DNA of 64,000 nt from Candidatus Latescibacterota bacterium (GTDB lineage: Bacteria; Latescibacterota; UBA2968; UBA8231): positions 224,001 to 288,000 of the forward strand of contig OZ242005.1 of assembly GCA_965204725.1 (NCBI GenBank). Direction: 5' to 3'. The notes beneath the pieces were generated by a model. That model made no database searches and was not told the origin of the DNA. It was given only the letters and a program-made list of their open reading frames with translations. Both the position numbers and the translations under genes were made by a program. Of this stretch, positions 1,638-55,020 are shown piece after piece (the first letter of the stretch is position 1; each line of letters starts with the position of its first letter).

Positions 1638-1643
1638 GCTTGC

Positions 1644-37823: not shown

Positions 37824-39550
37824 TGTCCATCCGAATTCTTCTGATATGCTTTCTCGGTCTGGCCTGCAACGCCGCCGAAGAGACCACACCGCCGGCACCG
37901 CTCCAGTACGCCGCACCCGCGGGCTCGTCGCTCCGCTTTGTCGAAGTCGCGTCGACCGTCGGCCTGATCTATCGGCACGAAAACGGCCACAGCCCCGAGC
38001 GCTACTTCCCCGAGACCATGGGCGGCGGCGGGGCCTTCTTCGACTACGACGGCGATGGCGATTTGGATGTGTACGCGGTGAACGGTGCTTTTATCGCCGC
38101 CGACCCGCAGGATGAAGCCCCTGTCAACAAGCTCTTTCGCAACGACAGCCAGCATTTCGTCGCGGTCGCGGCCGGGGTTGCCCACCGCGGCGTTGGCATG
38201 GGGGTTGCCGCGGCCGACTACGACAGCGACGGCGATCTCGACCTCTATGTGACCAACTTTGGCCCCAACGCACTTTTTCGCAACGACAGCGGGCACTTTG
38301 CCGAAATCGGCCGACCGACCGGCGTGGCCGATGCGCGCTGGGGCACGAGTTGCGCCGCGGCCGATTACGACCGCGACGGCGATCTCGACCTCTATGTCGC
38401 CAACTACGTGGCCTACGATCCGGGCGCGGCGCACGCCGACCAAGTGCCCTATATGGCCGGCTACGAAAGCTATGGCGGCCAAGTGCCGGTCGGCTACCCA
38501 CATCCAGACAACTTCCGCGGGCAAGCCGATCTGCTCTACCGCAACGACGGCGCGGGGCACTTTGTCGATGTCTCGGTCGGCGCGGGGATCGCCGATGCGA
38601 GCGGCAAGGGGCTGGGCGTAGCTTTTGGCGACTACGACCGCGACGGTTGGCCCGACATCTACGTGGCCAACGATGCGGTGCGCAACTTCCTCTACCACAA
38701 CCGCCGCGACGGCACCTTTGCCGAACGAGCGGGGCTGACCGGGGTGGCTTACGGCCAAGACGGGCAGATGGAGGCGGGCATGGGGGTCGATTGGGGCGAC
38801 TACAATGGCGACGGCGTGCTCGACTTGACGGTGACCAACTTCCAAGCCGAGCCGAACGCGCTCTATCGGGGCGAAAGCGGCTTTTTCTCGGTTGCGACCT
38901 TTGCGGCCGGGCTGGGCCTTCCATCGCTGCCGTTTCTCGGTTTTGGCACCCAGTTTTTCGACCCCGACCTCGATGGCGATCTCGACTTGTTTGCCGCCAA
39001 CGGTCACGTCCTCGACAACGTCTCGGCCATTGACCAATCCACTAGCTATGGGCAGCGCAATTTGCTCTTCCGCAACGACGGCGACCGCTTTGCCGAGGTT
39101 TCCGCCGCGTCCGGCCCCGGCTTCTCCTTAGAGCGCGTCAGTCGCGGCAGTGCCACCGGCGACTACGACAACGACGGCGACCCGGACCTTCTCGTCTTCA
39201 ACTCCGGGCAGCCGCTCAGCTTGTTGCGCAACGACCAAGGCGCGGCCAATAACTCGATCACCATCCGGCTCGTGGGGACCAACGGCAACCCGAATGGCAT
39301 CGGTGCCCGGCTGACGGCGCAAAGCGGCGACTGGGTCCAGACGAGGGAACTGCGCGGCAGCCGCTCATACCTATCGCAAAGCCAACTCCGCATCTGTTTG
39401 GGACTAGGGAAACGCCCGCAACTCGACGCGCTAACCGTGCGCTGGCCTTCGGGCCGAGTGGAGCGATTCGGCCCCTTTACAGCCAACCAAGCCATCGCCC
39501 TCGTCGAAGGCAAAGGTGAAGACATCAGCGCGGCTTCTGACCCGCCCTAA
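37823..39550 (+). CDS. CRTAC1-family FG-GAP/ASPIC-UnbV lipoprotein
   Basis: Lipobox-like GLAC; DYDxDGDLDLYV repeats; GLG..VRWPSG. Confidence 0.88.
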   Translation: MSIRILLICFLGLACNAAEETTPPAPLQYAAPAGSSLRFVEVASTVGLIYRHENGHSPERYFPETMGGGGAFFDYDGDGDLDVYAVNGAFIAADPQDEAPVNKLFRNDSQHFVAVAAGVAHRGVGMGVAAADYDSDGDLDLYVTNFGPNALFRNDSGHFAEIGRPTGVADARWGTSCAAADYDRDGDLDLYVANYVAYDPGAAHADQVPYMAGYESYGGQVPVGYPHPDNFRGQADLLYRNDGAGHFVDVSVGAGIADASGKGLGVAFGDYDRDGWPDIYVANDAVRNFLYHNRRDGTFAERAGLTGVAYGQDGQMEAGMGVDWGDYNGDGVLDLTVTNFQAEPNALYRGESGFFSVATFAAGLGLPSLPFLGFGTQFFDPDLDGDLDLFAANGHVLDNVSAIDQSTSYGQRNLLFRNDGDRFAEVSAASGPGFSLERVSRGSATGDYDNDGDPDLLVFNSGQPLSLLRNDQGAANNSITIRLVGTNGNPNGIGARLTAQSGDWVQTRELRGSRSYLSQSQLRICLGLGKRPQLDALTVRWPSGRVERFGPFTANQAIALVEGKGEDISAASDPP

Positions 39551-41558
39551 TCTGCTCAACGAGCGCGCGGCCTAACGCCTCTTGGCCCTGCTCGGCAGCG
39601 ATTTCTACCGCATATCGCTCGGCAGCGGCCAAGCGGCCCGCAGTCATTAGCTCGGCGACGAGCAACTCTAGCAAGTCCGTTGTAAGTGTCTTGCGGATGT
39701 TCGCGTCTTGCGCGGCGCGCTCTAGCGCGGCTAAGGCCCTGACATGCTCTCCGAGTAAATGATGGGCATAGCCGCGAATAAAGTCCTGTAACCCTAGGGA
39801 AAAGTCTGGGGCCGCGCTCAAAAAGCGCAAGCGGTCTAGCAGAGCAGAGAGCGCGGCGCGCTCGGTCGGCCCAATGGGCTCGCCCGCGAGTTGTCCGCAA
39901 CGCACATAGCGCAACGTACTCCACAAATCGCCCCATATCGTATAAGGCTCCTCCAAACGGGCCGCGCGATAATAGGCCCGCGCCCGCTCGTACTCCCGCG
40001 CAGCGTAACACGCTTCAGCCACGTTTAGTGCCAGCAACTCCGGCCCCGCGCCCGTTCTCCACCGCTCGACCCCGCTCTGCTCTCCGGCACTCAGCTCGTC
40101 CCACAGAACCTCGGTCTGCTGACGCAAAGTCTGTACTCGACGCTCGTTGCCCGCATCCAAAGGCGGCGCGGCCAAGAGCGCGGTCATGGCCCGGAGCACG
40201 GCCAGCCGCTCAATGGGCAGGTCGCCGAGCCTACGGCCGTACTCGTCGGCGGCCGCCAACCGATCCGCCGCGCCGGGCGCGACCTGCCAAGGGGCCGGTG
40301 CTCCTTTCAGCGCAGCGACAATAGCCCGGGCCAAGAGCACTTGGCCGGCCGCGGCCGGATGCAAGTGATCGGCCATCAGCTCCCAACCCACGCCGGCCGC
40401 CGGGCTATGGGCGCGAAAGCGCTCCTCAACATCGGCGAGGAGCACCCCTTCTTCGGCCGCGACCCGGCGCACGACCTCGTTCAGTGCGGCTGTCGCCCGC
40501 CAAGGCCGGGGATCCAACTCGCGCGCCTGCACATAAGCCGCCCGCGCCCGCGCCCCATGGCCCAACTGCTCTAAGTGATAACCGCGCAAGAAGTGCAAAT
40601 AAGCATCGTCCGCATAAAGTGCCTCGGCCTGCGCCAAGGCCGTTAGCGCGGCCGACGAGGTGTACTCCCGACCGCCCTGCGCCAAAAAATCCACATAGCG
40701 CACACGTTCCCCATTCGGCAAAGGCGGCTCAAGGCGCGCCGGCGCGAAACCGCGTTCATTGCTGGTCACCGTACAGAGCACCAAAGGAATGTGCCGCGCT
40801 CGGCAAAAGGCCGCCACATCGCGGAGGTTGGTCTCTAAATTGGCCGCGGCCTGCGCTCGCCGCGGATCAGACGCCGAGATCGCGCCGGCCTTAGACATTA
40901 CCTCAATTAAGGGACCATCCGCCCATTCTTTGCCCAACGGCCCTATCAGCGCACCAACCAAGGGCCGCAGCCGCCACTGCACCAGCGCGTAGTGGAGCCG
41001 CTTGGTCCACACGGCTTGCCCGCCTTGGGCCAATGAGGCCGCTCCGTACACCCCGTACAGCTCGTTGTGCCCAGTATAGACCACGACCAAGTCCGCCCCG
41101 AGCGCGGCTACGCCGTCTTCCACGGCGCGGGCCACGGCAAAGCTCGAAGCAGCGGTAATCCCGGCGTTAAAGACCTCGATCGGGCGCGCTGGAAAGAGGT
41201 CGCCGAGCATTTCTTGGAGATAAGACGGGGCCGATAACCGCTTGGGGTGCGGATAGCCCTGCACAGTCGAACCCCCGGCAAACAGTACGCGCAACGCGCC
41301 GGCGGGCGCGGGTTCGATATAGGGCCGCGGGGTCATGCGGATGCCGCGCCGGATCGGCTCGGCCACGCCGGCGAAAAAGCGCCGGGCATAGTCTGGGTTG
41401 ACCGCGTGGAGCGCCCGACCTTCGACGTGCGCTAATTGGACGGCAAACGCCGGCGGATCCAACGCCGGGATCAGCCGCAACCCCCCTTCGATGAGCGCGA
41501 CCAAAACCAAACCGAGCAGCAGGGCTGCAAACCGGCCGCGCATGGCCCCTGCGTTCAT
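39525..41558 (-). CDS. SGNH/GDSL hydrolase-like protein with TPRs
   Basis: GGSTVQG (block I), NAG, YTGHNE and DHLHP (block V); N-terminal TM; TPR-like helices. Confidence 0.8.
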   Translation of the reverse strand: MNAGAMRGRFAALLLGLVLVALIEGGLRLIPALDPPAFAVQLAHVEGRALHAVNPDYARRFFAGVAEPIRRGIRMTPRPYIEPAPAGALRVLFAGGSTVQGYPHPKRLSAPSYLQEMLGDLFPARPIEVFNAGITAASSFAVARAVEDGVAALGADLVVVYTGHNELYGVYGAASLAQGGQAVWTKRLHYALVQWRLRPLVGALIGPLGKEWADGPLIEVMSKAGAISASDPRRAQAAANLETNLRDVAAFCRARHIPLVLCTVTSNERGFAPARLEPPLPNGERVRYVDFLAQGGREYTSSAALTALAQAEALYADDAYLHFLRGYHLEQLGHGARARAAYVQARELDPRPWRATAALNEVVRRVAAEEGVLLADVEERFRAHSPAAGVGWELMADHLHPAAAGQVLLARAIVAALKGAPAPWQVAPGAADRLAAADEYGRRLGDLPIERLAVLRAMTALLAAPPLDAGNERRVQTLRQQTEVLWDELSAGEQSGVERWRTGAGPELLALNVAEACYAAREYERARAYYRAARLEEPYTIWGDLWSTLRYVRCGQLAGEPIGPTERAALSALLDRLRFLSAAPDFSLGLQDFIRGYAHHLLGEHVRALAALERAAQDANIRKTLTTDLLELLVAELMTAGRLAAAERYAVEIAAEQGQEALGRALVEQIRAGQKPR

Positions 41559-41572
41559 TGGAATTTGCTGAC

Positions 41573-43240
41573 TTAACGCGCGGCTGAGTAGCGGGAGAGT
41601 GCTTCTTCGTTGATTTGCACCTGATCGGCCTCCGCTCGGCGCAGCGAGTCGAGGAAGGCGTCGAAGAGCACCCCTTCTCGGCGCTTGCGGATCTTAACGC
41701 GAATGGGCCGCTGCACCTGCTTAAAGGGCAACGGCACCATTTCAAAAGGCTGGTCGAGGCGAAAGACGCTGTACTTTTCTTGGACCGCTAGCGGGCCTTG
41801 CAGCACACCGACGTCTTTGGAATTGCGGTCGCCAAAGAAGGTGCGGTACGGCGACTGGTACAGCGACTCAACGGTGACCCGACCGCTATCGGCAAAGGTG
41901 TGGCCGCCCACCGGCTTCATGCCCGGCCGCACCGAATGGCGAAGGGCCAACTCCGTCAGCCGCTCCCCGCTGCGCGCCCGCGCGAGAATTTCTTCGGCCT
42001 CCGGGCGCGTATTGACCAGCACCTCGGTCATCTCAATGATACCGGGCAAGGACTCGTAGGCATCGAGGTGTTCGTCGTAATAGGCCCGAACCTCGGCGTC
42101 TGTCACTTCGACCTTGCCCGCTACTTCGTCTAGGCGCAGTTGGGACGCGAGCAGCCGCTGGAGTTTTTTCTCTTTCCACTCGACTATATCGGCCCGCTGA
42201 TGCAGCCCCTGAGTGCGGGCTTCGAGGGCCAGCAGCGAATCGGGAAGAACCCACAACTCGAGCACGTGGAAGACGGCTGCGCTGTCGGGCGGGAGCACGC
42301 CTTTTTCCAAATCGAACTGCCCCTGCACGAAGTCGCCTACCTTGATCGCACCGCCTGTGTATTCGACGAGCGGGGCCTGTGCTTGCGCTTGGTCCAGCCC
42401 ACGGCGCTGTAGCCCAGCGAGCACGGCGTGGACGCGATCGCGGTGATAGCGCAGGTCGTGTACCTTCTTGAGCGAATCAAGGACCGCTTCGCGCCGGCTC
42501 ACCCACTTGCGCCGACTGAGCCGCTTGGCAATATCGTCGCGCAATTCCTCAAAGGGAATGCGCTGCTTTTTGAGCACCTTAACCACTTCGTAGCCGTCAA
42601 TCGTGCGGATCGGCTCGCTGACTTGGCCTTCCTCCAAGTGGAAGGTGCCAGCGCGCAGGCTGGACACGGCACCACCTTGGCCGAAGAAGGCCCCGAGGTT
42701 GCCGCCTTTGTCTGCGTCGGCGGCGAGGGAACGCTCGCTGGCCAATTCGGAGAAACTAGCCCCTGCATCAAGTAAGCGGATGATCTCGCGGGCGTCTTCC
42801 TCGCTGGCCGAGAGGATGTGCGCCGGCCAGATTTCCCAACCCAGCGATTGCTCCTCGTATGCCGCACGCAGTTCCGCTTCGGTAATAGCGATCTGGGCAT
42901 CGACCATTTCGCGAGACCGCTCCTCAACTAGGCGCGTATTGACCATCTTGGAGAGCTTGTCTTTCAGGTTGGGGTGCTGGTCCAGTGCCCGCTTCCTCGC
43001 CTCGCGCAGCACGAGCTTCTTGTCGATCAAGCTCTGCAAATGGGCGCGATGGGCAGCCGCGCCTTCCTTCTTCGAGCGCAGATAGTCGGGCAATTCCCGC
43101 TCAAAGCGGTCGAGGTCTAGGGCCGTGATCGCCTCCCCGGCCACCGTGGCCAAGGCCGTCTCGGGAGGGGCCGGTCCACGTTCCGGCTCGCAACCTGCAA
43201 CCGCTAAGAAGAGGCCGCAGACGAAAAATCGCTGAAACAT
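41573..43240 (-). CDS. Parvulin-type PPIase lipoprotein (SurA/PrsA-like)
   Basis: Start set at MFQRFF; lipobox VAGC; AHIL..FSELASERS..KGGNLG; paralog of 7889..9586. Confidence 0.85.
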   Translation of the reverse strand: MFQRFFVCGLFLAVAGCEPERGPAPPETALATVAGEAITALDLDRFERELPDYLRSKKEGAAAHRAHLQSLIDKKLVLREARKRALDQHPNLKDKLSKMVNTRLVEERSREMVDAQIAITEAELRAAYEEQSLGWEIWPAHILSASEEDAREIIRLLDAGASFSELASERSLAADADKGGNLGAFFGQGGAVSSLRAGTFHLEEGQVSEPIRTIDGYEVVKVLKKQRIPFEELRDDIAKRLSRRKWVSRREAVLDSLKKVHDLRYHRDRVHAVLAGLQRRGLDQAQAQAPLVEYTGGAIKVGDFVQGQFDLEKGVLPPDSAAVFHVLELWVLPDSLLALEARTQGLHQRADIVEWKEKKLQRLLASQLRLDEVAGKVEVTDAEVRAYYDEHLDAYESLPGIIEMTEVLVNTRPEAEEILARARSGERLTELALRHSVRPGMKPVGGHTFADSGRVTVESLYQSPYRTFFGDRNSKDVGVLQGPLAVQEKYSVFRLDQPFEMVPLPFKQVQRPIRVKIRKRREGVLFDAFLDSLRRAEADQVQINEEALSRYSAAR

Positions 43241-43332
43241 AATGGTATCACCTGTGTACAAAACTGCGCGGCACCGCTTTCCCAGCGGCACCGCGCAGCG
43301 AGTTGAAATTGGCTTAGAAACCCTGTGCCGCG

Positions 43333-44091
43333 CTATTGGCCGATCGCCACCTTGCTCCCGTCGGGGTAGATGCGGCCAATCTCTCGCCCAAAGTGCATTT
43401 CGACGTCCACGTCCTCAAGCGGGTCTCCCTTGAAGTCGAAGCGCACCACCACATCGGGAATGTGGACGGTCAACTTTTCTACGTCTGGGGCCAGCGGCTT
43501 AAAGACGAGATACCCTTCGCTCTCTTGGGCACTGAACACGTCCTCATCGGGAAACATCGTGCCCCGCAAGATGCCGTCGCGCTCCTGCCAGACGTAGCGA
43601 GCATTACCGGGCGTCCCAGGGTCGTTGCCCCCTCTGCCCCCGCCGACATAACGGCGATAATATACCGAAAGCTGTTCGTGCCTCAGTGCGTAGTACTTGC
43701 GCCCATTAGAGGTGGTTATATAGACCTTTTTGGGGTCGAGATAGACCTTGGGGTATTCGTAATTAGAAAGGTACAGGCGAAAGACGGTGAATCGCTGCGG
43801 GGTGTCCCCCGTGCGAAAGTGCGTCGAGTTGCCAAAAGTATAGGGGTTGCGCGAGTCGGCTCCCTCGTTGGAATAGGTGCTGAACTGGCGGTTCAACTCC
43901 TCGTCGGTCATCGGCCGCAGGCTGACTTCGAGCCGGGCCTGTCTATAAGACACAGTGCCGTCGTCGGCCACCGTCTTGTTAGCCCCTTGCTCGGCCTCGC
44001 TCAGCGGCGTGAGGTCTTCGGCATAGTAGCGATAGGAGCAGCCCGAAAAAAGCAGCCCGGCCAAAAGCAGCAGTGTGCAACACTTCAGCAT
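43333..44091 (-). CDS. Uncharacterised lipoprotein (252 aa), paralog of 26142..26885
   Basis: Lipobox FSGC; PMTDEELNRQF, NPYTFGN, QRFTVFRL and NYEYPKV motifs. Confidence 0.85.
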   Translation of the reverse strand: MLKCCTLLLLAGLLFSGCSYRYYAEDLTPLSEAEQGANKTVADDGTVSYRQARLEVSLRPMTDEELNRQFSTYSNEGADSRNPYTFGNSTHFRTGDTPQRFTVFRLYLSNYEYPKVYLDPKKVYITTSNGRKYYALRHEQLSVYYRRYVGGGRGGNDPGTPGNARYVWQERDGILRGTMFPDEDVFSAQESEGYLVFKPLAPDVEKLTVHIPDVVVRFDFKGDPLEDVDVEMHFGREIGRIYPDGSKVAIGQ

Positions 44092-44101
44092 GGAAAACCT
44101 C

Positions 44102-46852
44102 CTACTCTAAGCCGGCGAACACGGTGACGAACATGGCTGTTTCGGTGCGCGGCCTTTCGGCTGAGGCGCGATCGATCCGCGACACGCGGAACCCGGTTTG
44201 GGTCCACAGATTATAGCCTAGGTATTCGGCATTGTTGGTAAACTGCAGGGCATAGACCATCTCGTTGCGGTCCGAGCGCAGCAAATGGGTTTCCAACTCC
44301 TCGCGGAACTGCTCGACGAGCAGGTACTCTAGGCCGGTCTGCAATTCGGTGCGCGCCAAGATGGGTACGCGCAGGACCAAAGACCAGAGCTCGCGCAATT
44401 CCGTAGTCGCCACCCGCACCTGAGTATCTTCGCGGCGCGACGGCCGCTGGCGCTGAAACTCGCTCTTCCAGCGCGGCTGAAACTTGAGGACGCCGAGGTC
44501 AAACGTGTAATCGACCTTATTGAGGATCCCAAAGAAAGACGCGGTCTCGCGGATGTCCTGCTCCTCAAGCGGTCGGTTGGCGAAATTGGCCTGTTTGAAG
44601 ACCTCCCACTTAACGCGGTTCTTGAAGTGGATGCGGTCGCTCTGGTATTGATAGCCCAAGTACAGGGTATTGGCCCAACCATCGCGGAGGGGCAGGGGAT
44701 CGGTATAGGGCACTAAGTCGCCGCGTGACCCCTCGCGCACAACCCATTCAATCACGTCGTCGCGAATATCGTCTTGGACTCTGCGATAGTTGTTGTACAC
44801 CTGTACGCGCCCTTTGCTGGCGTAGTCCTTGTCAAAGGTCAGCAAGGCGTAATTGGTGACGTTCTCGCGGGCGTCGGCGAGCTGGCGCTCGTCGACGCGG
44901 CCGACGGTCAGCCGCGCCTCCGGCCCCAAATGAGACCCCACGTAGATGTTGTATCCACGCCGATCGCGTTTGTACAGGTAGTCGGGTAGAATGTCGTTTT
45001 CAAAGCGATCGACGATGCCGTTGTTGTTCATATCGACTCCGAAGAGAAATTCGGGGCGATCCGATGCGTAGCGGAGAAAAGGCTCCTCGTAGTCTGGCAC
45101 CGTATTCCAGCGATCCTCGGAGTCATTCTGATTGAAGTCGTTGATGAAATCGTTGTTTTCGTCGAACCCCGGGAATATCTCCCTATCCTGCGAGAAATTG
45201 GCCCGCTGCCAGTCGGGGTTGCGGTCTTGGTCGTCGTTGTCATCGACGAATTCGTACACAAAACGGAGGTCGTCGTCGTAGTTGATATCCGCTGCATCGT
45301 TTTGGGTGCCGGCTAGAAAGGAGCTGGTGCTGTAGCTGGGATCGACGTTATAGACTTCACCAAAGCCATAGTAGGGATACATACGCTTATACACGTTGAC
45401 AAACCAAGCGTCGGCCGAGGTGCTGTACGCCTTGTGCTGGGTCACGTCGGTTTCCGACCGCCGCGGATAGCGAAAGTGCTGGCGGTTGCGGTCGTATTCG
45501 CCCGAGAAGTAAAATCCGCTGACGTCCGTGACATCGAGCGTAAAGCCAAAGATTTCATTGGCCACCGGCAACCCGTACTTGACGCGCACAAAGCTCTGAT
45601 TCGAGCCATCCTGCACGTTGCCGTCGGCGCGCACCGTGCGTTCGGGAATGCCCTCAGAGAGCAAGACTGACTGACCGTTGGCGTTGAGCTGGCGGTTGGA
45701 GGTAACGTCAATCCGGTAGTCGTTGGCCAAGAGCAACAGGAACTCAATGCTCTTGATCTGCTCGGGCTGGGGGCCGAAAGAGTTGCGGTACTGCGGGCCT
45801 TCTAGATCGTACAACAGCACGATGACCTCGTTGCCATCGGCCGCGAGGAAGCCTTCGCGACGGAAGCCACCCTGCACGGCTGGGGCGAAGTCGAGGATAT
45901 TGCTGTTGCCGATGCGGCGGCGGTTGCTGATGCGCTCGCCGTCGATGGTCGTGATGATCATCTCCTCCTGAAAGAAGGCCGCGCCCGCCCTACCGTCTTC
46001 GGGCGAATCGTCGCTCAAGCGCACTTCGATACGCGAAACGTCGGCGTTGTTCTGACCCTCGGTGAGTGTGCCCTTGAAGGGGTTGCCCTGAAATGCCTGC
46101 CCCTTAGTCGAGGAGTTGAAAGCATTGATATAAGTCGCGCCTAACTTGACAAAGTCGCCGACCTGCATGGTGCCGCGACCGCCGATCAAGTTGGTGTCGT
46201 TCGAGCGGTAACGACCCGTGCTAGTCGTCTGCGCCGTTTCGACTTGCCCGGGCGCACTAGGACGCGAGGTGAGAAAAGTCGCCTCGTATTTATCCGTGGC
46301 CAAGTCGAACTGAATACCGGCAAAGGTCGGCTTGGAAAAGGTCATTGGCGTCAGCGTCGTGCGGATGCGGTCGCCAATGGTCAGGGCATAGGCGTATTGG
46401 CCCTTTTGGTCCGAGGCGACGACCAAATTTGCAAACCAGCCTTGGAAGTTAGGGCCTTTATACAGGTTGCTGCCCGATGTCTGCGGCGCTGCAACGCTCC
46501 AGTCGTAAAGAAGTGAACCGCGGGTAATGTAATTCCCGTAGAGATCGTAGAAGTATTCGCCTTCTTGGTTGGTGTTCACAAAGCGCTGATAATGTCGGCG
46601 GGCGTAATTGGTATAGTCCTGTTGCCGCCATTGGTACTCATTGAAAAGTTCTTGGGGTACATACCACTTCTTCACCGCTGGATCGAGTGCGTCAAAAAGC
46701 ACCCCCGGCCCGACGGGATCGTAGAAAACCTCCCCGCCGCGGCGTATGCCCAAACGCGAGCCGAAATCCTCCTGTGCCGGGAGGTTTTCCACCATCGCTC
46801 CCAACATCAGGACCGCCACCGAACCGGTGCGGAAACTCTTAACTATGTTCAC
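44102..46852 (-). CDS. Uncharacterised secreted, putative outer-membrane beta-rich protein (916 aa)
   Basis: Signal peptide; aromatic-rich amphipathic strands in the C-terminal third; acidic DxNDD/DxNNN loops; RBS GGGAGG. Confidence 0.8.
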   Translation of the reverse strand: MNIVKSFRTGSVAVLMLGAMVENLPAQEDFGSRLGIRRGGEVFYDPVGPGVLFDALDPAVKKWYVPQELFNEYQWRQQDYTNYARRHYQRFVNTNQEGEYFYDLYGNYITRGSLLYDWSVAAPQTSGSNLYKGPNFQGWFANLVVASDQKGQYAYALTIGDRIRTTLTPMTFSKPTFAGIQFDLATDKYEATFLTSRPSAPGQVETAQTTSTGRYRSNDTNLIGGRGTMQVGDFVKLGATYINAFNSSTKGQAFQGNPFKGTLTEGQNNADVSRIEVRLSDDSPEDGRAGAAFFQEEMIITTIDGERISNRRRIGNSNILDFAPAVQGGFRREGFLAADGNEVIVLLYDLEGPQYRNSFGPQPEQIKSIEFLLLLANDYRIDVTSNRQLNANGQSVLLSEGIPERTVRADGNVQDGSNQSFVRVKYGLPVANEIFGFTLDVTDVSGFYFSGEYDRNRQHFRYPRRSETDVTQHKAYSTSADAWFVNVYKRMYPYYGFGEVYNVDPSYSTSSFLAGTQNDAADINYDDDLRFVYEFVDDNDDQDRNPDWQRANFSQDREIFPGFDENNDFINDFNQNDSEDRWNTVPDYEEPFLRYASDRPEFLFGVDMNNNGIVDRFENDILPDYLYKRDRRGYNIYVGSHLGPEARLTVGRVDERQLADARENVTNYALLTFDKDYASKGRVQVYNNYRRVQDDIRDDVIEWVVREGSRGDLVPYTDPLPLRDGWANTLYLGYQYQSDRIHFKNRVKWEVFKQANFANRPLEEQDIRETASFFGILNKVDYTFDLGVLKFQPRWKSEFQRQRPSRREDTQVRVATTELRELWSLVLRVPILARTELQTGLEYLLVEQFREELETHLLRSDRNEMVYALQFTNNAEYLGYNLWTQTGFRVSRIDRASAERPRTETAMFVTVFAGLE

Positions 46853-46900
46853 AAAGAACCTCCCTTGTTGTCGAAATTCCGGTCCGAACGCCTGCCTGTA

Positions 46901-49900
46901 TCAATAGGCCACGTGTACGAGGCGCGTCAACTCGCTGTCCCGGTCGTCGGCCTCCACCTTGATCTGACAGAGATAGAGCCCCGGCGGTACGACCTGTCCA
47001 CCCATATCTCGCCCGTCCCAGACGAACGCCTGCGTCCCTACCTTGCCGCCGGTCGCCGAACTCTGCCCTCGGCCTACCAAGCGCCCGCTCAAATCGTAAA
47101 ACGCGACTTCTAATGGCCGTTCCTCTTGTATCTTCAATAAGACGAAATGCACCCAGAGCTGATCGTTGACTCCGTCGCCATTGGGCGTGAAGACCGACGC
47201 CATCCCCACATCTTGGATCAAAGACCCCGGCAAGTCCATCAGGCTGATCCGCGCCGTCGAAGAGTCCACCAACTCGGTCGCATCCTTATCGACGGTGTCA
47301 ACTCGTTGAAATACGCCCTCGTCCGAATCTGAGGACCGCACGAACGAGGCAAATTCAATGCCCTCGCGGAAGCTCTGCGACTCAAACTGCACCTCAATAA
47401 GGGCGTGCTGGCCAGTGGGCAAATCGGCATTGAGCGAAAAGGGGAAGCGCACCCAAATCGAATCCTCACCTGTCGCCATCCGGTCCAGCACCAAGCCGTC
47501 CTCCGAGCGGAAGACTCCGTCGTCGCCCGGGGCAAAGGCGCGGTCAAACTTCGTGGTCGTCGCCGAGGTCAGCACTTCTTCCGGGTTGAGGAACGAGGGC
47601 GTCTGGGCGATGGCGACTTGTCCCAAGCGCACACCGGTTACGCGCACAGCACGCGGCGCGACGACCAGCACCTCGTCAAAGCCGTCGCGCACCGTCGCGT
47701 CAGTCGGGTCGGGCGTGGCGGCACGGATGAAATAAGCAAATTGCTGCGGTGCGAGCGGATCGACATTGCGCGGCGGAGTGTAGTCCGAGGTCTGGACATC
47801 TAAGTCGCTCGGAATGCGCGTCGCTCCCTCATCGCTGAGGAGTGCCAGCTCGCCGGCTAGTTCGAGGGCCAGCGGCGGGGCCAACTCAACGCGCAAACTG
47901 CGGATGCGCGCCGTCTTGAAGGGATCTTCTGAGGAGATATTGACCCGCACTTGGAGAAACTTGCGCGGATTGGGCGAGGTGATCGTCGCCTCGTTGACTC
48001 CGTTGGTAGGTAGATAGCTTTCGCTCCACTCGCTCCAGCCGACAAACGCGAGTTCGCCATCCTTGTCAAAGCTCGACCGCGGTGCGCGGCGCAGCTTCTT
48101 GCCGTCCTCATCTATGAGGCCATCGCCATCGTTGTCGATGAGGTCAATCTCGTCTTCGTCGGTGACCCCGTCGCCATCGTCGTCCTTGCGCGAGGCGTGT
48201 CTCTTGCTTTCGGGCAGGGTTTGCCAAATCTCCCATGCCGTCCACTTCAAGGCAATCTCGTCGTAGATCTCTTTTGACACTTCCGTACGCTCTTCGTTGC
48301 CGGCGACAGTGACGACTTGGTAGTACGTGAAGTTGGTGTCGGTCTGGTCTGAGGTGCGAGTCTGTATCTGCAAGCGGACATCCGGGTGAAGATCCAACGG
48401 CTCAATCCGTTCCCTCGCTTGGCCGGTGAGCGGATCGGTCTCGCGGACGATGACATCGCCTTCCCAAGCGATGCGCGGCAGGGTCTTGCGGATGAAATTG
48501 CCGCGCGAATCTGTCTGCGAGATCGGCGGAGAGTACGCCCACACGCTGACCGGATAGCCTTCGCCATAGAGCTGGATCTCGGCCATAGTCGCCAGTGCCC
48601 CATAGCGGCCTGATTGCACCCCGGTGACATCGATGTCGCGGATTTGCAAAAAGCGGATCTTGCGCCTGAGAAAAGTCTCGCGGAAAATGCGCACTACCGG
48701 CGTGTGATTATCGACATGCTCCTCACTAATGATGTTGTCCCACTTGAGAGCTTCTTCAAGTTGGGGGAAGTCGTCGCGGTCGTTCATGCTCACGGGTTTG
48801 AGCAGAGTGCCGTCGGAAACCAAGATATCCGGCCCTAAGAAGGCCCCTTGGTGGCTCTGGTTGATGCGCTTGTTGACCACCGAGACATTATCGACCCAAA
48901 ACACGGCCCCTAAGTCGTACCAAGCCGTGCCTTTGAGGTACACCGGCGACCACGTATTGGCCACCCACTCCGAGTCGTACAGCCCATCCGTAGCCAAATT
49001 GGGTGCGCCCAAGCCGCCGTTTTCAAACGAAGCCCCGGCACGCCTTTCGGGTTGCAGCGCGTAGTTGTCGCCCTTAGCCCAAACTTGGACCTCGGCGATA
49101 CGGGGAACCTCTTTGCTGTAATAGAGAATCGAGCCGCGTTTTTCCACGGGCAGATTTTGATACTTTTCTTCAGCCGTCAGGTTGTCGTCGCTTTGGAGCT
49201 CGACGAGTAGGCCACCAGCGGTTTGACGCTGATAGACAATCGCACCGCGCCGCTCTTGGGGCAATGCTTCATAGGCAAGGCGCGCCTCTTCGTCAGCACC
49301 TAAAAAGGAATCGCGCCAGAGAGCCGAATTCGTAATTTTGATGCGGACGTACTGGATAAAAGCTCCACTGATGTCGGGTTGGCCGTTTAAGTCCCAGTCG
49401 GCTCGATCAAGCGGCCAGAGCGGAAAGGTCATCTGCACATGGCGTCCCTCGGTGCCAGGCACCGGAACCAGCGCCACTTCACCACTCTCACCCCCTCCCC
49501 CACCTTCACAGCGAGTCTCGCCGGCGTAGCCCGAGCTTTCGTCGCGCACACATTGGGCTAACTTGCCGGCGACGAAGTCGGTCGAGACTCGCCCTATGAG
49601 GGAAAACTTGAGGTTGTTGCCCAAAGGAAAGGGGAAGCGCTCACCCATCGAGGCGAAAAGCGCGAAGGACTTAACCGGCTCGCCGAGAAATTCGCCCTCA
49701 AACTGACCAGCGGGAAAGATGATCGTCAAGCTGTCGGCAAAAACCAATCGTCCCAGATCGATTTCAATTTCCCAGTTGCGCAGACCGTCGAGATTGAAAT
49801 CCCCAGGACGAGTCAGCCTGCTCGCAAAACTGGCCGGGGTGGCCGGCTCCCAGAAGGTGCTCAAATCGCCATCTATAACATTGTTGGCCAAGCGGTCGTT

Positions 49901-50236
49901 GGATTTGGCGGTCGTACCTCCAGAGACTAGATCGCCGTTAGCGCGGACCAAATCGGGATAGGTGAAATCGACAGCCGTCGGAGCCACGTTGATATTGCGG
50001 CGAAAGAACGTCGGCCGCAGACCGTCGGCCGCAACTTGGAAGATATCCGCATCGCGGATTGGCACATTCAAATTCGCAACCAGATCGTTCTGATAGAGCC
50101 AGTTTTCCCAGTGTGAGGCTCGATCCACGCGAATCGAGTTGCCGGAAAGCCTGTAGGCATTCGTTTGGGCCAGACAGAAACTGGGCATAAACAGTACGGC
50201 GAAGAGGGCCGCCTGCCGTTTTAGCAGTCGTTTCAT
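46901..50236 (-). CDS. Secreted discoidin-like protein with FlgD-Ig/T9SS-like C-terminal domain (1111 aa)
   Basis: Signal peptide; IDLG and YDLG discoidin-like motifs; WSEWS; FTPNGDGVND..WDGRD..PGLY..LVHVAY. Confidence 0.87.
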   Translation of the reverse strand: MKRLLKRQAALFAVLFMPSFCLAQTNAYRLSGNSIRVDRASHWENWLYQNDLVANLNVPIRDADIFQVAADGLRPTFFRRNINVAPTAVDFTYPDLVRANGDLVSGGTTAKSNDRLANNVIDGDLSTFWEPATPASFASRLTRPGDFNLDGLRNWEIEIDLGRLVFADSLTIIFPAGQFEGEFLGEPVKSFALFASMGERFPFPLGNNLKFSLIGRVSTDFVAGKLAQCVRDESSGYAGETRCEGGGGGESGEVALVPVPGTEGRHVQMTFPLWPLDRADWDLNGQPDISGAFIQYVRIKITNSALWRDSFLGADEEARLAYEALPQERRGAIVYQRQTAGGLLVELQSDDNLTAEEKYQNLPVEKRGSILYYSKEVPRIAEVQVWAKGDNYALQPERRAGASFENGGLGAPNLATDGLYDSEWVANTWSPVYLKGTAWYDLGAVFWVDNVSVVNKRINQSHQGAFLGPDILVSDGTLLKPVSMNDRDDFPQLEEALKWDNIISEEHVDNHTPVVRIFRETFLRRKIRFLQIRDIDVTGVQSGRYGALATMAEIQLYGEGYPVSVWAYSPPISQTDSRGNFIRKTLPRIAWEGDVIVRETDPLTGQARERIEPLDLHPDVRLQIQTRTSDQTDTNFTYYQVVTVAGNEERTEVSKEIYDEIALKWTAWEIWQTLPESKRHASRKDDDGDGVTDEDEIDLIDNDGDGLIDEDGKKLRRAPRSSFDKDGELAFVGWSEWSESYLPTNGVNEATITSPNPRKFLQVRVNISSEDPFKTARIRSLRVELAPPLALELAGELALLSDEGATRIPSDLDVQTSDYTPPRNVDPLAPQQFAYFIRAATPDPTDATVRDGFDEVLVVAPRAVRVTGVRLGQVAIAQTPSFLNPEEVLTSATTTKFDRAFAPGDDGVFRSEDGLVLDRMATGEDSIWVRFPFSLNADLPTGQHALIEVQFESQSFREGIEFASFVRSSDSDEGVFQRVDTVDKDATELVDSSTARISLMDLPGSLIQDVGMASVFTPNGDGVNDQLWVHFVLLKIQEERPLEVAFYDLSGRLVGRGQSSATGGKVGTQAFVWDGRDMGGQVVPPGLYLCQIKVEADDRDSELTRLVHVAY

Positions 50237-50272
50237 AGCATTTCCTTTCTTCTTTCCGCGCTTCAGCTAAGG

Positions 50273-52753
50273 TCAATACGCTACGGAAACAATGCGCGTC
50301 TGGGGCGTACCCGCGTGATCGGCTTCGGTCGAAATGCGCAACATGTATAGGCCCGGAGGCACTACCTGTCCAGCATCGTCGCGACCATCCCATGGTTGAG
50401 AATATCCTCCCGACGACAGATGGCGCTCAATAAAGCGCAGTCGCCGACCGTTCAAAGCAAATATCTCTAGATGCACCGGCCTCGGCGTTAGCAGCCGCTG
50501 TATATCAAAAGCGGCGACTATTTCGTCGTTGACCTCGTCGCCATTGGGCGTAAACGGATTGGGCGCGACCCTAAAGTTGGTCACGAGATTCTTGCTTTGC
50601 GCTGAAATATCGGCGATCACCGCTAGGGAATTGCGATCTGAGAGTTGGTCCGTCGCGGCGAAGTCCACCACGTCATTGTCCTGCACCCGCTGTGGCAGGA
50701 AGAGGGCCAGCGTATCGAGCCCACTCTCGCTACTCCCAAGTGCCAAAATACCGTTTCTGGTAAAGCGCCGCTCCACTTCTGCTCCTAAGGTATCTAGGAA
50801 GACGCTGGCGACGAAGTTAGTGCGGAAATCGATGACTCGCCCCTGAAAGCAGACCTTTACCAATACGTTGCGAACTTGGCCATCCTCAGCAGGGCTGATG
50901 GCTGGAAAACCAACGACGAACTGATCGTCGGCGACGTACAATTCTCGAAACTGATTCTCGCCGATCTCGCCTTCGCCGCCCGCTCGTTCCAAGTTCAGGA
51001 ACTCCCCGTCGCCTAGATCCACTTCCACCCCCTCAATGGCCTCTGTGCGCGCCGGAGTAAAAACCTGCAAGCGATTGAAGCCGTTGTTCTCGGCCCCTAT
51101 CTCAGCACTGAGGACCAATACAAAGGAGGTGTCGCGACCTGCAATTACATCCACGGCCGGAGCGATCTCACCGCCGATCTGATCCGTTATCTGTGGGGCA
51201 GAGTATTCAAAGCGTAAGTTGCTAATAATCGTGGCCGCCTCGGGTTCTTGGCTCAGAAACTCAACCTCTATCTGAATGAAGGGCCGACCACTCGGCGCAT
51301 TGATCAACTCGCCATTGTTGGCTAACTGGACGCCACTCCAAAACTCGAGATCAGGTTCGACATGGCGCCGTACATTGCCCGGCAGGGCCTTGTACTCCTT
51401 GCGGGTCAGGCGGACTCGCGCTCGATCCTCGGGCAGAGCGGCACTGAAGATCTCACGAGCCTCCAGATTGAAATTTTCATCGTTTAGGTCCACTTCTTGG
51501 CCTTCGGTCAATGAACCGAGCCTCCGGTCAATAATAGTTGCCCCCTCTGCACGCCACTCCACTTCGCGCTCAAAGTCATTGACGCGAAAAAGCACATCCG
51601 GCTCGGGATTGACGCCGGTCTGGACGCGTACGATAGCGCGCGACCTATTGGGATCGCCAATTTTTCTCTCGTCCCAGAAGATCCGCCCCAAGGTCGCCGG
51701 GGGCAGCGGCAGAGCATTGGAAGTATATACCGCTTCGGGCACGAAACCGTCGGCGAAAAACTCCATTTCAGCCAAGTCGTAGTCCAGCGGAGTCTGAAAA
51801 TCGAAGCGCGCATAGCGCATGTAAGCCTGCGGATCAAAGGCCACAGCAATGGTGTCTTCCACATTGACTGGTACGCTCGCCTCGGAAACGAAAGTCGGAA
51901 AAGTCGGAGCTATGCTAGTAAACCTAGGGAATGCCAACTGCCCAATGCTCGGATCGTCGAGACTAAGACCGGCGATTATCTTCTCAGTCTCAGGCAGCCC
52001 TCTATGGAAGGTGTAAGCGGAAACACGCGCAGGCTCTTCAAGACTGGGGTAGAGGCGGAACAAGCGAATTGGAAAGTAGCGTCCTAGGTCGATATAGAGG
52101 GTCCATATCTGCTTGACATCCTGCCCAACTCGGTCAATGCGCTCGAAATGGGTCAGTGGATCGCCATCGAAAACGCTCCCCAAGCCCTCTTGGAGTCGCT
52201 GATCAGTCAAAGCCCTTTCAAAAATGCCGAGAGTTGTGAGATTGAGCCCCTTGTTGTACTTATCGCCGCCGGGAGGGCGAGGAAAAGATTCGGCCACGTT
52301 GATCAGGGCCTCAATCTCGGTAATGCCAGCTTGGCGTAATAGCTGGACAGCCTCTAGGCTTTGCGGAAAGGGACTCCAGCGAGGAATCAAGACCGTGCCC
52401 GCCTCTACGATCGTGCCATCTTCAAGTTCGATATCAGTCGGTGCGACTACATCGGCTCTGGTTACATTAAGCGAGAAAGCAAAGAGGCTGGAATCGGTCG
52501 CCGCATCTACTTCGGTGGCGGTTAATGCAAGAGAGATTTCGGGAACGGGGACTACACGCAGTGGCGTGATAGGCCCAATGCCATTTTCATAGCTTTCAAA
52601 GTCTATTACTTCAATGAAGCGACTTTCTGAAAGCGGCCCCTGTTTGGCTTCGGCCCAAGTTGTGTTGCCCGGGATGGCAAATAGACGCAACTCTGCAGCA
52701 TTTGCTACCCCACCTGCCAAAATCAGCACGGCGACACAAATACCAACTCTCAT
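50273..52753 (-). CDS. Secreted discoidin-like protein with FlgD-Ig/T9SS-like C-terminal domain (826 aa)
   Basis: Start set at MRVGIC (RBS GGAG); IDLGRYFPIRLFRLYP; PNPFTPNGDEVND..WDGRD..PGLY..IVSVAY. Confidence 0.85.
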   Translation of the reverse strand: MRVGICVAVLILAGGVANAAELRLFAIPGNTTWAEAKQGPLSESRFIEVIDFESYENGIGPITPLRVVPVPEISLALTATEVDAATDSSLFAFSLNVTRADVVAPTDIELEDGTIVEAGTVLIPRWSPFPQSLEAVQLLRQAGITEIEALINVAESFPRPPGGDKYNKGLNLTTLGIFERALTDQRLQEGLGSVFDGDPLTHFERIDRVGQDVKQIWTLYIDLGRYFPIRLFRLYPSLEEPARVSAYTFHRGLPETEKIIAGLSLDDPSIGQLAFPRFTSIAPTFPTFVSEASVPVNVEDTIAVAFDPQAYMRYARFDFQTPLDYDLAEMEFFADGFVPEAVYTSNALPLPPATLGRIFWDERKIGDPNRSRAIVRVQTGVNPEPDVLFRVNDFEREVEWRAEGATIIDRRLGSLTEGQEVDLNDENFNLEAREIFSAALPEDRARVRLTRKEYKALPGNVRRHVEPDLEFWSGVQLANNGELINAPSGRPFIQIEVEFLSQEPEAATIISNLRFEYSAPQITDQIGGEIAPAVDVIAGRDTSFVLVLSAEIGAENNGFNRLQVFTPARTEAIEGVEVDLGDGEFLNLERAGGEGEIGENQFRELYVADDQFVVGFPAISPAEDGQVRNVLVKVCFQGRVIDFRTNFVASVFLDTLGAEVERRFTRNGILALGSSESGLDTLALFLPQRVQDNDVVDFAATDQLSDRNSLAVIADISAQSKNLVTNFRVAPNPFTPNGDEVNDEIVAAFDIQRLLTPRPVHLEIFALNGRRLRFIERHLSSGGYSQPWDGRDDAGQVVPPGLYMLRISTEADHAGTPQTRIVSVAY

Positions 52754-52860
52754 TCCGTTACTCCCCGGTAGAATTTGCCCGGATCGCAGCATGGGCAAAC
52801 AGGAGCGAGGTATTATGACGCGAGGAAGGTAGCTATCTACGTTATGCGATAGCCACGAGA

Positions 52861-52904
52861 TAATTTTAAGGAGAGGAGGAAGCATTCCCCCTCTCCTTAA
52901 ATTA
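52861..52904. terminator. Hairpin between the first and second genes of module B
   Basis: TTTAAGGAGAGG (52865..52876) pairs with CCTCTCCTTAAA (52890..52901), extendable at both ends. Confidence 0.7.
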
Positions 52905-52926
52905 GGAAAACAGCAGGACGCTACTA

Positions 52927-53823
52927 TTACTCAATCGCGGCCTTGATGCGGCCCCAAGACTCTTCTTCGACCGACGTTTCACCGGTGCCGACCAAGCGAC
53001 CATCGACGAAACGCTCGGCATAGCGCCAAGTCGCGGCCTGACCAGACAAGGTGTGAAAGGCGCGGTACTCTGACGGGCCTGTATCCATGTCCTGAGCCGA
53101 AATTTGGAACCCAATGATCTTGCCGTCGAAGAGAGGCGACGGGACGCTGTCGTCGGGACTATTCCAGATCAGATCGTCGAAAGGCGTGACGAAAAATTCG
53201 ATGATCGTAGTCGTCGGTCCGTCCCCGACCGAACCCCCACCGCCATCGGCGTAGGGCAGCGCGTTGACCCACTCGGTGCCTTTGCCCAGATAGCCGACAT
53301 GGCGGCCGTCAGGAGTATCGCCGATAGCCACGTACTGCTGAGCCGTGCGGTTGTTATTCAGGTCTTTCTCTTCGTCGGTCCAGTTCTCGTCAGCCGAACC
53401 GGTATAGTCTCCACCGGTGTGGTCGCCATCAAGCATGAACTCAATAGCATCTTGCCGCCACAAGCTACCCAAGTCACCGCCAGCGTACTCGTTGATGTAC
53501 ACATTGTCGATGCGCTCCATACCCATCCAGATGGTTCCGGCATTGCCGTTCCAGCCCAGCCAGATGCGGTAGTCTAGGTCTGCCGGATCGTACTGAGCAC
53601 CATCGCCTACAGTCGGATCGTGAAAGAAATCAGTCGTGGTCAGCGCAGCATCACCAATCACGTCTTCCCAGTCTGCTATGCTGGCATCGCGCAGATCGAT
53701 GTCAGCCAGATCCGCCTCGGAAACTTCAAAGAGCAGGTAGATCTGTTCGCCAATATGTGCGTTGGCACCGCTCGTCAGGCCCACTATCAGGCCCATAGCG
53801 ATAAGGCCATATAGACGTTTCAT
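52927..53823 (-). CDS. Secreted CBM9/DOMON-like protein with WGRIK tail (298 aa)
   Basis: Start MKRLYG with RBS AAGGAG; DAIEFMLDGDHTGG and IIGFQI..DMD; ends TSVEEESWGRIKAAIE. Confidence 0.85.
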   Translation of the reverse strand: MKRLYGLIAMGLIVGLTSGANAHIGEQIYLLFEVSEADLADIDLRDASIADWEDVIGDAALTTTDFFHDPTVGDGAQYDPADLDYRIWLGWNGNAGTIWMGMERIDNVYINEYAGGDLGSLWRQDAIEFMLDGDHTGGDYTGSADENWTDEEKDLNNNRTAQQYVAIGDTPDGRHVGYLGKGTEWVNALPYADGGGGSVGDGPTTTIIEFFVTPFDDLIWNSPDDSVPSPLFDGKIIGFQISAQDMDTGPSEYRAFHTLSGQAATWRYAERFVDGRLVGTGETSVEEESWGRIKAAIE

Positions 53824-53840
53824 AAGTTGCGACTCCTTCC

Positions 53841-54091
53841 AATACCCCTTATCGGGAGTGTGGTGGTTTGGGGCAGCGACCTTTTCGGCTCGAACTGCGT
53901 CGTAGCACAGCCCTCCATTGCTTATTGCCTTCATAGGTCTGTCTTCCCCTGCATGATATGGATTGCCCCCTAGTAGTCGTGTACTTAGGGGCCTCTGTTA
54001 GGAAATAATTATAAAGTTTTCTCGATTGTAATTCAAGTATCTTGTATTCGGCAGTGCTTGGCCCGTTGGCATACTCCCGATAAGGGGTATT
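53841..54091. repeat. 22-bp inverted repeat pair (21/22 identical) flanking a 207-bp promoter segment
   Basis: 53841..53862 AATACCCCTTATCGGGAGTGTG versus 54070..54091 CATACTCCCGATAAGGGGTATT. Confidence 0.9.
54008..54036 (-). promoter_or_regulatory. sigma70 promoter of module B, inside the inverted repeats
   Basis: Minus strand TTGAAT-N17-TATAAT. Confidence 0.8.
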
Positions 54092-54114
54092 ATCAGGAGT
54101 TAAGCGAGGCGTAT

Positions 54115-55020
54115 TTATTGAGCATCTCCAGCGTCGTCGCCGGTGCTATCTCCGGCCGGGTCGTCCGCATCGTCGTCCGCGCTTTCTTCGTCCTTATCTT
54201 TCCGAAAGCGAATGTGCTTTATGTCGTGCATACCAATCGCAAACCGACCCGAACCTACGGTTCCCGTAAAGGCCTGGTTGACGCGCTCGAAATAGCTCTT
54301 GTCGGTCTCGCCCGAAAGGCGGACTAGGCTCGCCTCGACCGTGCCCATAACGGTTTTTCCCGACCAGTAGGTCGCCGTTATCGGCCTAAACTCGTCGCCC
54401 GTCCCGCCGTCCTCAAAGTCGATTCGCTCCACTTTGTCTAGGGGGATAAAGCGCTTGTCGCGGCCCTTGAAAAAGTCGAGCCGCTGCTTGCCGTGAAAGC
54501 GCAAATTCTCCACCTCAAAGCGCCGGCCGTTTAAGGTGATGATCGTGGCCTTGAGGGCCTTTTCCGTCGGCGGCTCCTCGCCGATGGGAGGGCGCAAGAC
54601 AATCTCTTGCACATCGCTGGCGAGAATAAAGAACGGCCCTAGCTCGGTCACCCCAGCGAAGCGACGCCCGCTACTCCCGCCGCCGACGGCGTCTTGGTGG
54701 GGCGAAGAAGCACTGCCCGTCACCATCAGGCCCGATTCTTGGCCGCCGTTCCAGAACACGAGCACGACGCGCTGTTCCTCGTCGCTGCGCTCCCCTTCAA
54801 AGCGCAACTTGGCAACCTTGACCAGTTCCACCAGCCGACGCTGGCCTTGGACGTAGATTTCCAAATCCTGACGCCCTTGAAAGGTGAACTTATTTACTTG
54901 GTGCTGGTTTCCGTAGCGATCGATAATGGTCGCTTTGAGGGGAGAAGTAGCAGCTCCACTGGCCGATGCCCAGAGCGCGGCCAAGAGTATAACTCCACCC
55001 CATAGTCCTTTGCGCTGCAT
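54115..55020 (-). CDS. Secreted hypothetical protein with an internal two-fold duplication
   Basis: Signal peptide; LKATIIDRYG and LKATIITLNG repeat halves; acidic tail. Confidence 0.8.
   Translation of the reverse strand: MQRKGLWGGVILLAALWASASGAATSPLKATIIDRYGNQHQVNKFTFQGRQDLEIYVQGQRRLVELVKVAKLRFEGERSDEEQRVVLVFWNGGQESGLMVTGSASSPHQDAVGGGSSGRRFAGVTELGPFFILASDVQEIVLRPPIGEEPPTEKALKATIITLNGRRFEVENLRFHGKQRLDFFKGRDKRFIPLDKVERIDFEDGGTGDEFRPITATYWSGKTVMGTVEASLVRLSGETDKSYFERVNQAFTGTVGSGRFAIGMHDIKHIRFRKDKDEESADDDADDPAGDSTGDDAGDAQ

Follow-up and report, generated by a model that had tools for sequence, protein, structure and literature searches.

A candidate invertible promoter between inverted Xer/dif-type sites upstream of a surface-protein operon in a Latescibacterota genome

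Can the promoter of a large operon in an uncultured Latescibacterota bacterium be turned around by a recombinase that is encoded elsewhere in the genome? The question was raised by a first-pass annotation of a 64,000-nucleotide stretch of DNA (the window, C1:224001-288000 of the assembly), in which 22-bp inverted repeats at 53841..53862 and 54070..54091, 21/22 identical and 207 bp apart, had been noticed around a promoter. A repeat search of the window confirmed these repeats as part of arms of 31 nt (53832-53862 and 54070-54100, 87% complementary, gap 207 nt) with a perfect 19-mer core at 53841-53859 and 54073-54091. At up to three mismatches the 19-mer matched the window twice, where 100 shuffles gave an expectation of 0.00. 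A search for further copies of the 22-mer had been suggested; throughout the 5.43-Mb genome only the two arms matched it at up to three mismatches (reversed-pattern control 0), and the repeat is therefore not a scattered REP sequence. As in known invertons, inverted repeats bracket a short intergenic segment. This candidate invertible segment (53860..54072, minus strand) measures 213 bp between the 28-bp sites described below, or 207 bp between the 22-mers, holds the promoter and most of a 5' leader, and shows a GC content down to 0.455. No second copy of its interior was found in the same genome by blastn and nhmmer, unlike what is seen for multi-copy MITE or REP elements, and the interior has an orthologous counterpart, promoter plus leader, in relatives without the repeats.

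The promoter is of the sigma-70 type (TTGAAT-N17-TATAAT, minus strand, 54036..54008), scored 10/12 in a promoter scan and points into the operon, as had been proposed for a near-consensus minus-strand promoter between the repeats. The scan is weak on its own, since the 1.4 kb scanned contain 2 promoter-like sites and shuffled versions 1.0 +/- 1.1; the -35 and -10 boxes are kept in 18/18 aligned relatives, as TTGCAG/TTGACT-N17-TATATT. In one orientation of the segment, the assembled one, the promoter thus faces the gene from an inferred transcription start, and the earlier reading of this orientation as ON stands. All genes around the locus lie on the minus strand. The operon that had been placed downstream is there, but its length of roughly 12 kb was an underestimate, as seven tightly spaced genes span 14.3 kb from 53823, where the first gene starts, to 39525 (39525..53823, minus strand). 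They encode a 298-aa secreted protein that is a distant CBM9-like paralogue, two large proteins with CHU_C-like T9SS tails, proteins of 916 and 252 aa that belong to no family, a SurA-like PPIase and a GDSL/TPR protein. The upstream gene (54115..55020, minus strand), co-oriented with the operon, encodes a 301-aa protein of no family.

Each repeat arm amounts to a full site consisting of an 11-bp arm, a 6-bp centre and an 11-bp arm. Site R (54073..54100; minus-strand sequence ACTCCTGATAA-TACCCC-TTATCGGGAGT) starts 14 nt past the stop codon of the upstream gene, is itself palindromic with 11-bp arms and a 6-nt spacer, and fits the 16-base pattern ACTNNNGATAA-N6-TTATCNNNAGT with no mismatch. Site L (53832..53859; minus-strand sequence ACTCCCGATAA-GGGGTA-TTGGAAGGAGT) has three mismatches to the pattern, all in its degenerate outer arm. 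Within that outer arm lies the Shine-Dalgarno (SD) sequence GGAAGGAGT (53840..53832), and within the inner arm the anti-SD sequence ACTCC. The centres of R and L are exact reverse complements, which places the two sites in inverted orientation, and the inner arms are perfectly complementary in this genome. The 11-6-11 arrangement is the layout of Xer/dif core sites. As in dif-type sites, two inverted arms ending in ...ATAA and TTAT... are separated by 6 bp, and partner centres are identical both at the R/L locus and in a second cassette described below. Cores of 28 bp with a spacer between XerC and XerD arms have been reported for Acinetobacter sites (PMC9947245). With at most one mismatch, the 16-base pattern was found at 1-8 sites in 29 of the 31 genus genomes, the reversed-pattern control giving 0 in 30 of the 31. 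When the genome itself was scanned for inverted pairs with matched centres at up to six mismatches, 7 were obtained versus 3 in the reversed control, R/L being the only pair with three or fewer. The R/L repeats are, as judged from their sequence, tyrosine-recombinase core sites of the Xer/dif type, at which binding and cleavage are predicted.

The first-pass annotation had found no recombinase gene in the window, and the three PF00589 matches of the genome (C1:717716, C1:1689344 and C1:3165752) indeed all fall outside it. Tyrosine as well as serine invertases had been envisaged elsewhere; three tyrosine recombinases are there, which supplies the site-specific recombinase that an inverton needs, but PF00239, the serine recombinase family, had no match in the genome (94% complete). 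One of the three reaches the XerD cut-off (343 bits versus 329.6), the second is XerC-like (313 bits versus a cut-off of 335), and the third, a divergent Xer-like protein of 326 aa (C1:1688930-1689907), scores 131 bits only. Upon alignment of the latter to XerD (1A0P) the R, K, HxxR, H and Y positions were seen to be kept. About 445 bp upstream of its gene lies a further site, S1 (C1:1688458-1688485; ACTACCGATAA-CGGGCA-TTATCGGTAGT). The arms of R agree with those of S1 at 9/11 and 10/11 positions and the inner arm of L at 10/11, so that R and L resemble a site of their own genome located next to an Xer gene, as expected of dif-type sites.

S1 sits at the peak of the cumulative G-C curve, which has its global maximum at 1.68 Mb in 10-kb bins and a local peak in the 2-kb bin ending at 1,688,000. 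This position is a sharp GC-skew switch, short of a proven terminus, and it is called so on account of the irregular genome-wide skew curve. Of 30 other genus genomes, 28 have a single copy of the 326-aa recombinase (77-93% identity), and in a phylum-wide draw at E<=1e-30 it was recovered from 28/40 genomes of the family and 0/80 of other families. An S1-type site lies upstream of the Xer-like gene in 29/29 genus loci, none of which has a partner site within 1.5 kb of S1, and beside the recombinase in 18/23 loci (17/22 distinct places) of other genera of the family; gene and site are 130-470 bp apart. We consider this enzyme the best candidate for acting on R and L, with XerC and XerD as alternatives. 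This putative assignment is based on site similarity, and XerD and an XerC-like gene are also present. The 6-bp S1 centre (CAGGCA) was observed to be reversed relative to the recombinase gene in 5 of the 29 genus loci (L049, L052, L056, L057 and L059, from G007, G043, G008, G015 and G017), with the site still upstream. An apparent inversion of the recombinase gene in half of the species was rejected, the loci being colinear when commonly oriented.

The syntenic region is present in all 24 genus genomes first drawn. In 19/19 relatives with a BLAST match the first 88 nt of the interior are co-oriented with both flanking genes, while five further, distant relatives gave no BLAST match to the interior and show, by eye, a TTGACA-N17-TATxAT that points the same way. 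Searched with an HMM of the interior, 107 further genome and metagenome loci gave 28 matches, all on the strand of the gene, the remaining 79 loci having no match on either strand. The metagenome search contributed 53 loci, with a recognisable leader in only three (L061, partial, L090 and L092), all ON. A complete R/L pair was found in 12 distinct genus genomes, again all ON, and remnants only in about 15 other genomes or contigs. The first-pass annotation had proposed a segment that exists in two orientations. In assemblies, the material surveyed, the flipped orientation was observed in 0/19 BLAST-readable relatives, 0/28 HMM matches and 0/12 pair-bearing genomes, so that the second state, a hallmark of invertons, is absent from every readable assembly. 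This counts against an active switch.

The centres of R and L match in 12/12 pair-bearing genomes and occur in four variants, namely TACCCC in four genomes (G000, G002, G013, G046), TATCCC in five (G005, G007, G008, G014, G019), TGCCCC in two (G004, G044) and TTCCCC in one (G043). Inner arms are complementary at 11/11 positions in ten of these genomes and at 10/11 in two. The tree built from the first operon gene has genomes with and without the pair intermingled in both main clades, which indicates that the pair is old and was lost several times, each time leaving the ON state. The centre TGCCCC is found in both clades, as is an inner-arm change from TTATCGGG to TTATAGGG with its partner change, and several coordinated double changes are thereby indicated. 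The same inner-arm position (TTATCGGG/TTATAGGG) is polymorphic in S1 arms as well; its co-variation is hence not due to protein binding alone. In G019 (L019) an insertion of ~1.2 kb between site R and the promoter lengthens the interior to 1405 bp, compared to 213-311 bp elsewhere; the insertion has short inverted ends and a CCAACGGG repeat that are visible by eye.

Sites of the same family surround another promoter in six genomes (G004, G005, G007, G008, G019 and G043). This second cassette is a segment of 128-130 bp with a TTGACA-N17-TAAATT promoter between inverted sites, located between a divergent gene for a solute-binding protein and the gene for a 300-aa CBM9-like secreted protein that is a distant paralogue of the first operon gene product of the window (23% identity, E 0.008). 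Its centres are AAATAA, AAATAG, TAAAAG or CAACAA, each matched within the pair, and matching was observed in 5/5 fully resolved pairs. Here the first site precedes the -35 box by 10-12 nt and, given also the divergent neighbour, the two sites are unlikely to be part of one transcript, for which reason RNA pairing offers no explanation there. The orthologous spacer of the present genome has the promoter and lacks the sites. A partner search for lone sites in 12 loci was successful in L172 and L173 only.

Three further copies of the cassette lie beside LRR-protein genes in G043 (L168, L169 and L181), with centres TAAAAG/CTTTTA and CAACAA/TTGTTG. In all three the interior is inverted relative to a shared flank, X. 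In L169, flank X matches in the forward direction at 143/200 positions, while the interior matches as the reverse complement at 92/128 versus 35/128 forward (shuffled mean 52, maximum 85); L168 and L181 gave the mirror result and are likewise inverted. The breakpoints of the inversion coincide with the 28-bp sites. These copies show the footprint of a historical site-specific inversion, although the loci compared are paralogues and not orthologues. All three copies have the promoter-like element directed away from the LRR gene, and its version in L168 (TTGACA-N17-TAAGTT) falls below the thresholds of the promoter scan.

Taken as a whole, this architecture backs a recombinase-driven promoter switch more strongly than could be seen in the first-pass annotation, which had been made from sequence alone. 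The explanation that we favour, with confidence slightly better than even, is a promoter that is inverted in trans by an Xer/dif-type tyrosine recombinase and is assembled in the ON state, flipping at the R/L locus itself being unproven. An Xer-family recombinase encoded elsewhere would bind the four arms of R and L and exchange strands at the borders of the identical centres (TACCCC/GGGGTA), inverting the segment. In the ON state the promoter and leader would drive the 14.3-kb operon of surface proteins and T9SS cargo. Once flipped to OFF, the promoter would transcribe the 3' end of the upstream gene in antisense, leaving the operon with read-through transcription only. Both the identity of the acting enzyme and continued flipping at this locus are what we infer from the features above.

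The alternative that survives best is a switch at the level of RNA that requires no DNA inversion, which we regard as unlikely although it deserves serious consideration. The 3' end of the upstream gene would then carry R as a hairpin, the 3' half of which (UACCCC-UUAUCGGGAGU) would pair in read-through transcripts with the anti-SD side of L (ACUCCCGAUAA-GGGGUA), either freeing the SD or forming a duplex of ~20 bp for processing, while transcripts from the internal promoter, lacking R, would fold a local anti-SD/SD hairpin. The scan predicted no minus-strand terminator-like site in the interval from the upstream gene to R, so that transcription may run on into the segment and R and L could pair in the resulting RNA. 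The leader itself (53824..54001, minus strand), ~178 nt from the inferred transcription start, is conserved and according to alignment and alifold contains several conserved helices and a terminal anti-SD/SD hairpin. The pairs of this hairpin (ACUCC/GGAGU) are invariant in 18/18 aligned leaders, including those of species without the full site, as the RNA reading would have it, and these five pairs are the outer halves of the two arms of site L.

Variation in the other helices of the leader is almost all one-sided (G-C to G-U), and the fold was dropped as evidence for a riboswitch on this account. The leader may be an undescribed cis-regulatory RNA, with weak covariation support. An Rfam scan of 53600-54300 (E<=10) returned no leader family, and hence no known cis-regulatory RNA; its sole match, Guanidine-II at 54129-54166 (13.8 bits, E 3.8), lies inside the upstream gene and is at chance level.

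Sites that occur singly also speak for RNA-level control. In L128 (2337-2507; one contig of the G020 bin) a signal-peptide ORF of 56 codons precedes the first gene of the operon in place of the promoter and leader and ends within an L-like 28-mer, neither R nor the leader being present. From this locus and the invariance of the hairpin in species without the full site, site L may be kept for translation control. R follows a stop codon, and so does a lone copy identical over 31 nt to the site R of G005 (L170 2143-2170; G005:C1:2789142), which lies 0.8 Mb from the locus, inverted, where 60 bp separate two genes of the same direction. With it, G005 has three sites that share a centre, the distant one being inverted, an arrangement that would be awkward for highly active sites.

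The complementarity of R and L co-varies, and two of the changes in the centre are transitions for which G-U intermediates are possible. Against this, no difference of the G-U type is found in any of the 12 pairs, the only two mismatches being C-C and G-A. The RNA and DNA readings are not distinguishable from co-variation at the R/L locus alone. An RNA switch however leaves unexplained the match of the R arms to a recombinase-adjacent site (9/11 and 10/11) and the 11-6-11 geometry, and it gives no account of a family of sites around another promoter, where the first site is upstream of the -35 box and the neighbour divergent, or of the inverted interior in the G043 paralogues. The resemblance to S1, the geometry, the second cassette and the G043 inversion are the reasons for which the invertible DNA segment is favoured.

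It is also conceivable, if rather improbable, that the sites are genuinely of the Xer type and the switch is no longer in use, R and L being a relic, a landing pad or a trace of dif-module-like mobility around a promoter effectively fixed ON. Every assembly being ON is what such a relic would show, and so is the loss of the pair in many lineages, all of them locked ON. Lone orphan sites with unmatched centres occur as well (C1:3473536 in this genome and several in relatives), and the second cassette is represented in this genome by a promoter without sites. Decay is, on the other hand, difficult to reconcile with a pair whose centres still match perfectly in 12 genomes after three or more coordinated double changes, while the neighbouring intergenic sequence diverged. 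This retention argues for continuing selection on recombination competence or on pairing.

Promoter inversion by a trans-acting tyrosine recombinase is a known kind of regulation, and gut Bacteroidota, Firmicutes and enterobacteria provide well-documented examples of invertible promoters. In the RecV switches of Clostridioides difficile and in fimS of E. coli, inverted by FimB/FimE, a promoter segment lies between inverted repeats in front of a surface-structure operon, both orientations have been demonstrated experimentally, and RecV is encoded away from most of its switches. The R/L locus shares with them a recombinase of the Xer/integrase superfamily, here a candidate, and a promoter segment before a surface-structure operon. 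To our knowledge, the RecV and fimS repeats are neither full dif-like 11-6-11 sites nor copies of a terminus-located site. XerS/difSL and XerH/difH are single-recombinase Xer modules for chromosome-dimer resolution in which the gene is next to the dif site, and we know of no case in which their sites are duplicated around promoters. The candidate enzyme is similar to XerS and XerH in that its gene is near a conserved 28-bp site with palindromic arms at a GC-skew switch, but the present genome differs from those modules by also containing XerD and an XerC-like gene.

In Bacteroides, Mpi-type promoters flanked by inverted repeats lie upstream of surface-structure operons and are inverted by an enzyme supplied in trans. 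The analogy to Bacteroides drawn in the first-pass annotation turned out to be misplaced, as phylum and promoter type differ: the host is a Latescibacterota MAG whose genes are SD-led and whose promoters are of the sigma-70 type, and no serine invertase was detected in it. An Mpi-type regulon was likewise not found in this genome, in which PF00239 is not matched and R/L is the only good inverted pair.

Xer1 of Mycoplasma agalactiae is a tyrosine recombinase that phase-varies the Vpma surface proteins by site-specific inversion (PMC2268961). A recombinase of the Xer type, candidate here, and phase variation of surface proteins, proposed here, are common to both systems; in Vpma, the recombinase lies beside the variable locus and one promoter is shuffled among several genes. 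The nearest documented parallel for the sites themselves is provided by the oppositely oriented pXerC/D (pdif) pairs of Acinetobacter plasmids, of which the active ones share an identical central region and undergo reversible inversions. There as here, inverted 28-bp 11-6-11 sites of the Xer type bracket a DNA module and the enzyme is encoded elsewhere (PMC9947245). The pXerC/D sites bracket plasmid-borne, kilobase-sized resistance modules and have asymmetric arms bound by XerC and XerD (PMC9947245), whereas the R/L sites are chromosomal, flank a putatively invertible promoter segment of 213 bp, are built of nearly palindromic arms and match the site accompanying the third, divergent Xer-like gene.

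Among the publications listed by a limited literature search, none coupled Latescibacterota with inverton terms. What is unusual in the present case is the uncultured Latescibacterota lineage, the sites copying the site of a family-wide Xer-like gene at a skew switch, and the overlap of one site with a ribosome-binding hairpin. An Xer/dif module is normally a housekeeping device for chromosome-dimer resolution. If the favoured reading is true, such a module is reusable as a phase-variation engine for large surface-protein operons, and inverted 11-6-11 pairs with matched centres constitute a search rule for switches that needs no reads; a testable candidate enzyme-site pair would also be at hand for organisms that cannot be cultured. 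We further advance, as a tentative and on balance doubtful extension, that in this Latescibacterota family a single-recombinase Xer/dif module linked to the terminus was recruited to act as an invertase in trans. The dif-like site would have been copied into inverted pairs around promoters so as to phase-vary operons of surface proteins and T9SS cargo and, in one relative, LRR genes, and site L would combine a DNA switch and an RNA translation gate in one 28-bp element.

A chance inverted repeat, the terminal repeats of a MITE or IS element, or a REP element is scarcely credible as the origin of R and L and already contradicted, for even though short elements flanked by inverted repeats are common in this genome, with several multi-copy families of 808, 888 and 897 bp spacers, the R/L repeat is unique in it, encloses a conserved orthologous promoter and leader that relatives without the repeats also have, and had no expected match in shuffles. 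A genome-wide scan for exact inverted repeats (k=14, gap 40-3000) returned 353 pairs, of which the long ones are multi-copy IS/MITE or REP-like families, none having the R/L repeat. A candidate REP family of CGATAA-N4-8-TTATCG palindromes was discarded as too few, with 4 occurrences in this genome versus 1 in the swapped control.

Additional elements and dif-like sites were observed in the course of these scans. The three multi-copy families of short elements, found at many places in the genome (e.g. C1:500850-501697), have terminal inverted repeats of 17-21 bp and the fixed spacers given above and are probably MITEs or small IS elements. The orphan site of the present genome (C1:3473536-3473563; L029 4537-4564; ACTAACGATAA-TAGGCC-TTATCGGGACT) has convergent genes on either side and a DNA methyltransferase gene nearby; no partner with a matching centre was found for it. 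On three contigs of G046 (C9, C12 and C6; L212-L214) a unit of ~10.4 kb encoding capsid, prohead protease, portal, large terminase and GH108 lysozyme is assembled as a tandem concatemer with copies 99.2% alike. Each unit has one dif-like site (ACGAACGATAA-TAGGAT-TTATCGTTAGT) and may represent a small element of phage type that relies on the Xer system of its host. Contig C2 of the present genome (51.7 kb) carries a weak site-like 28-mer twice in direct orientation, at C2:14437 and C2:49355, 34.9 kb apart, and may be a circular element assembled more than once around. Finally, the inverted-repeat scan picked up a run of ~18 G and a complementary C run that form an inverted repeat 1.3 kb apart at C1:1929220-1929243 and 1930528-1930549.
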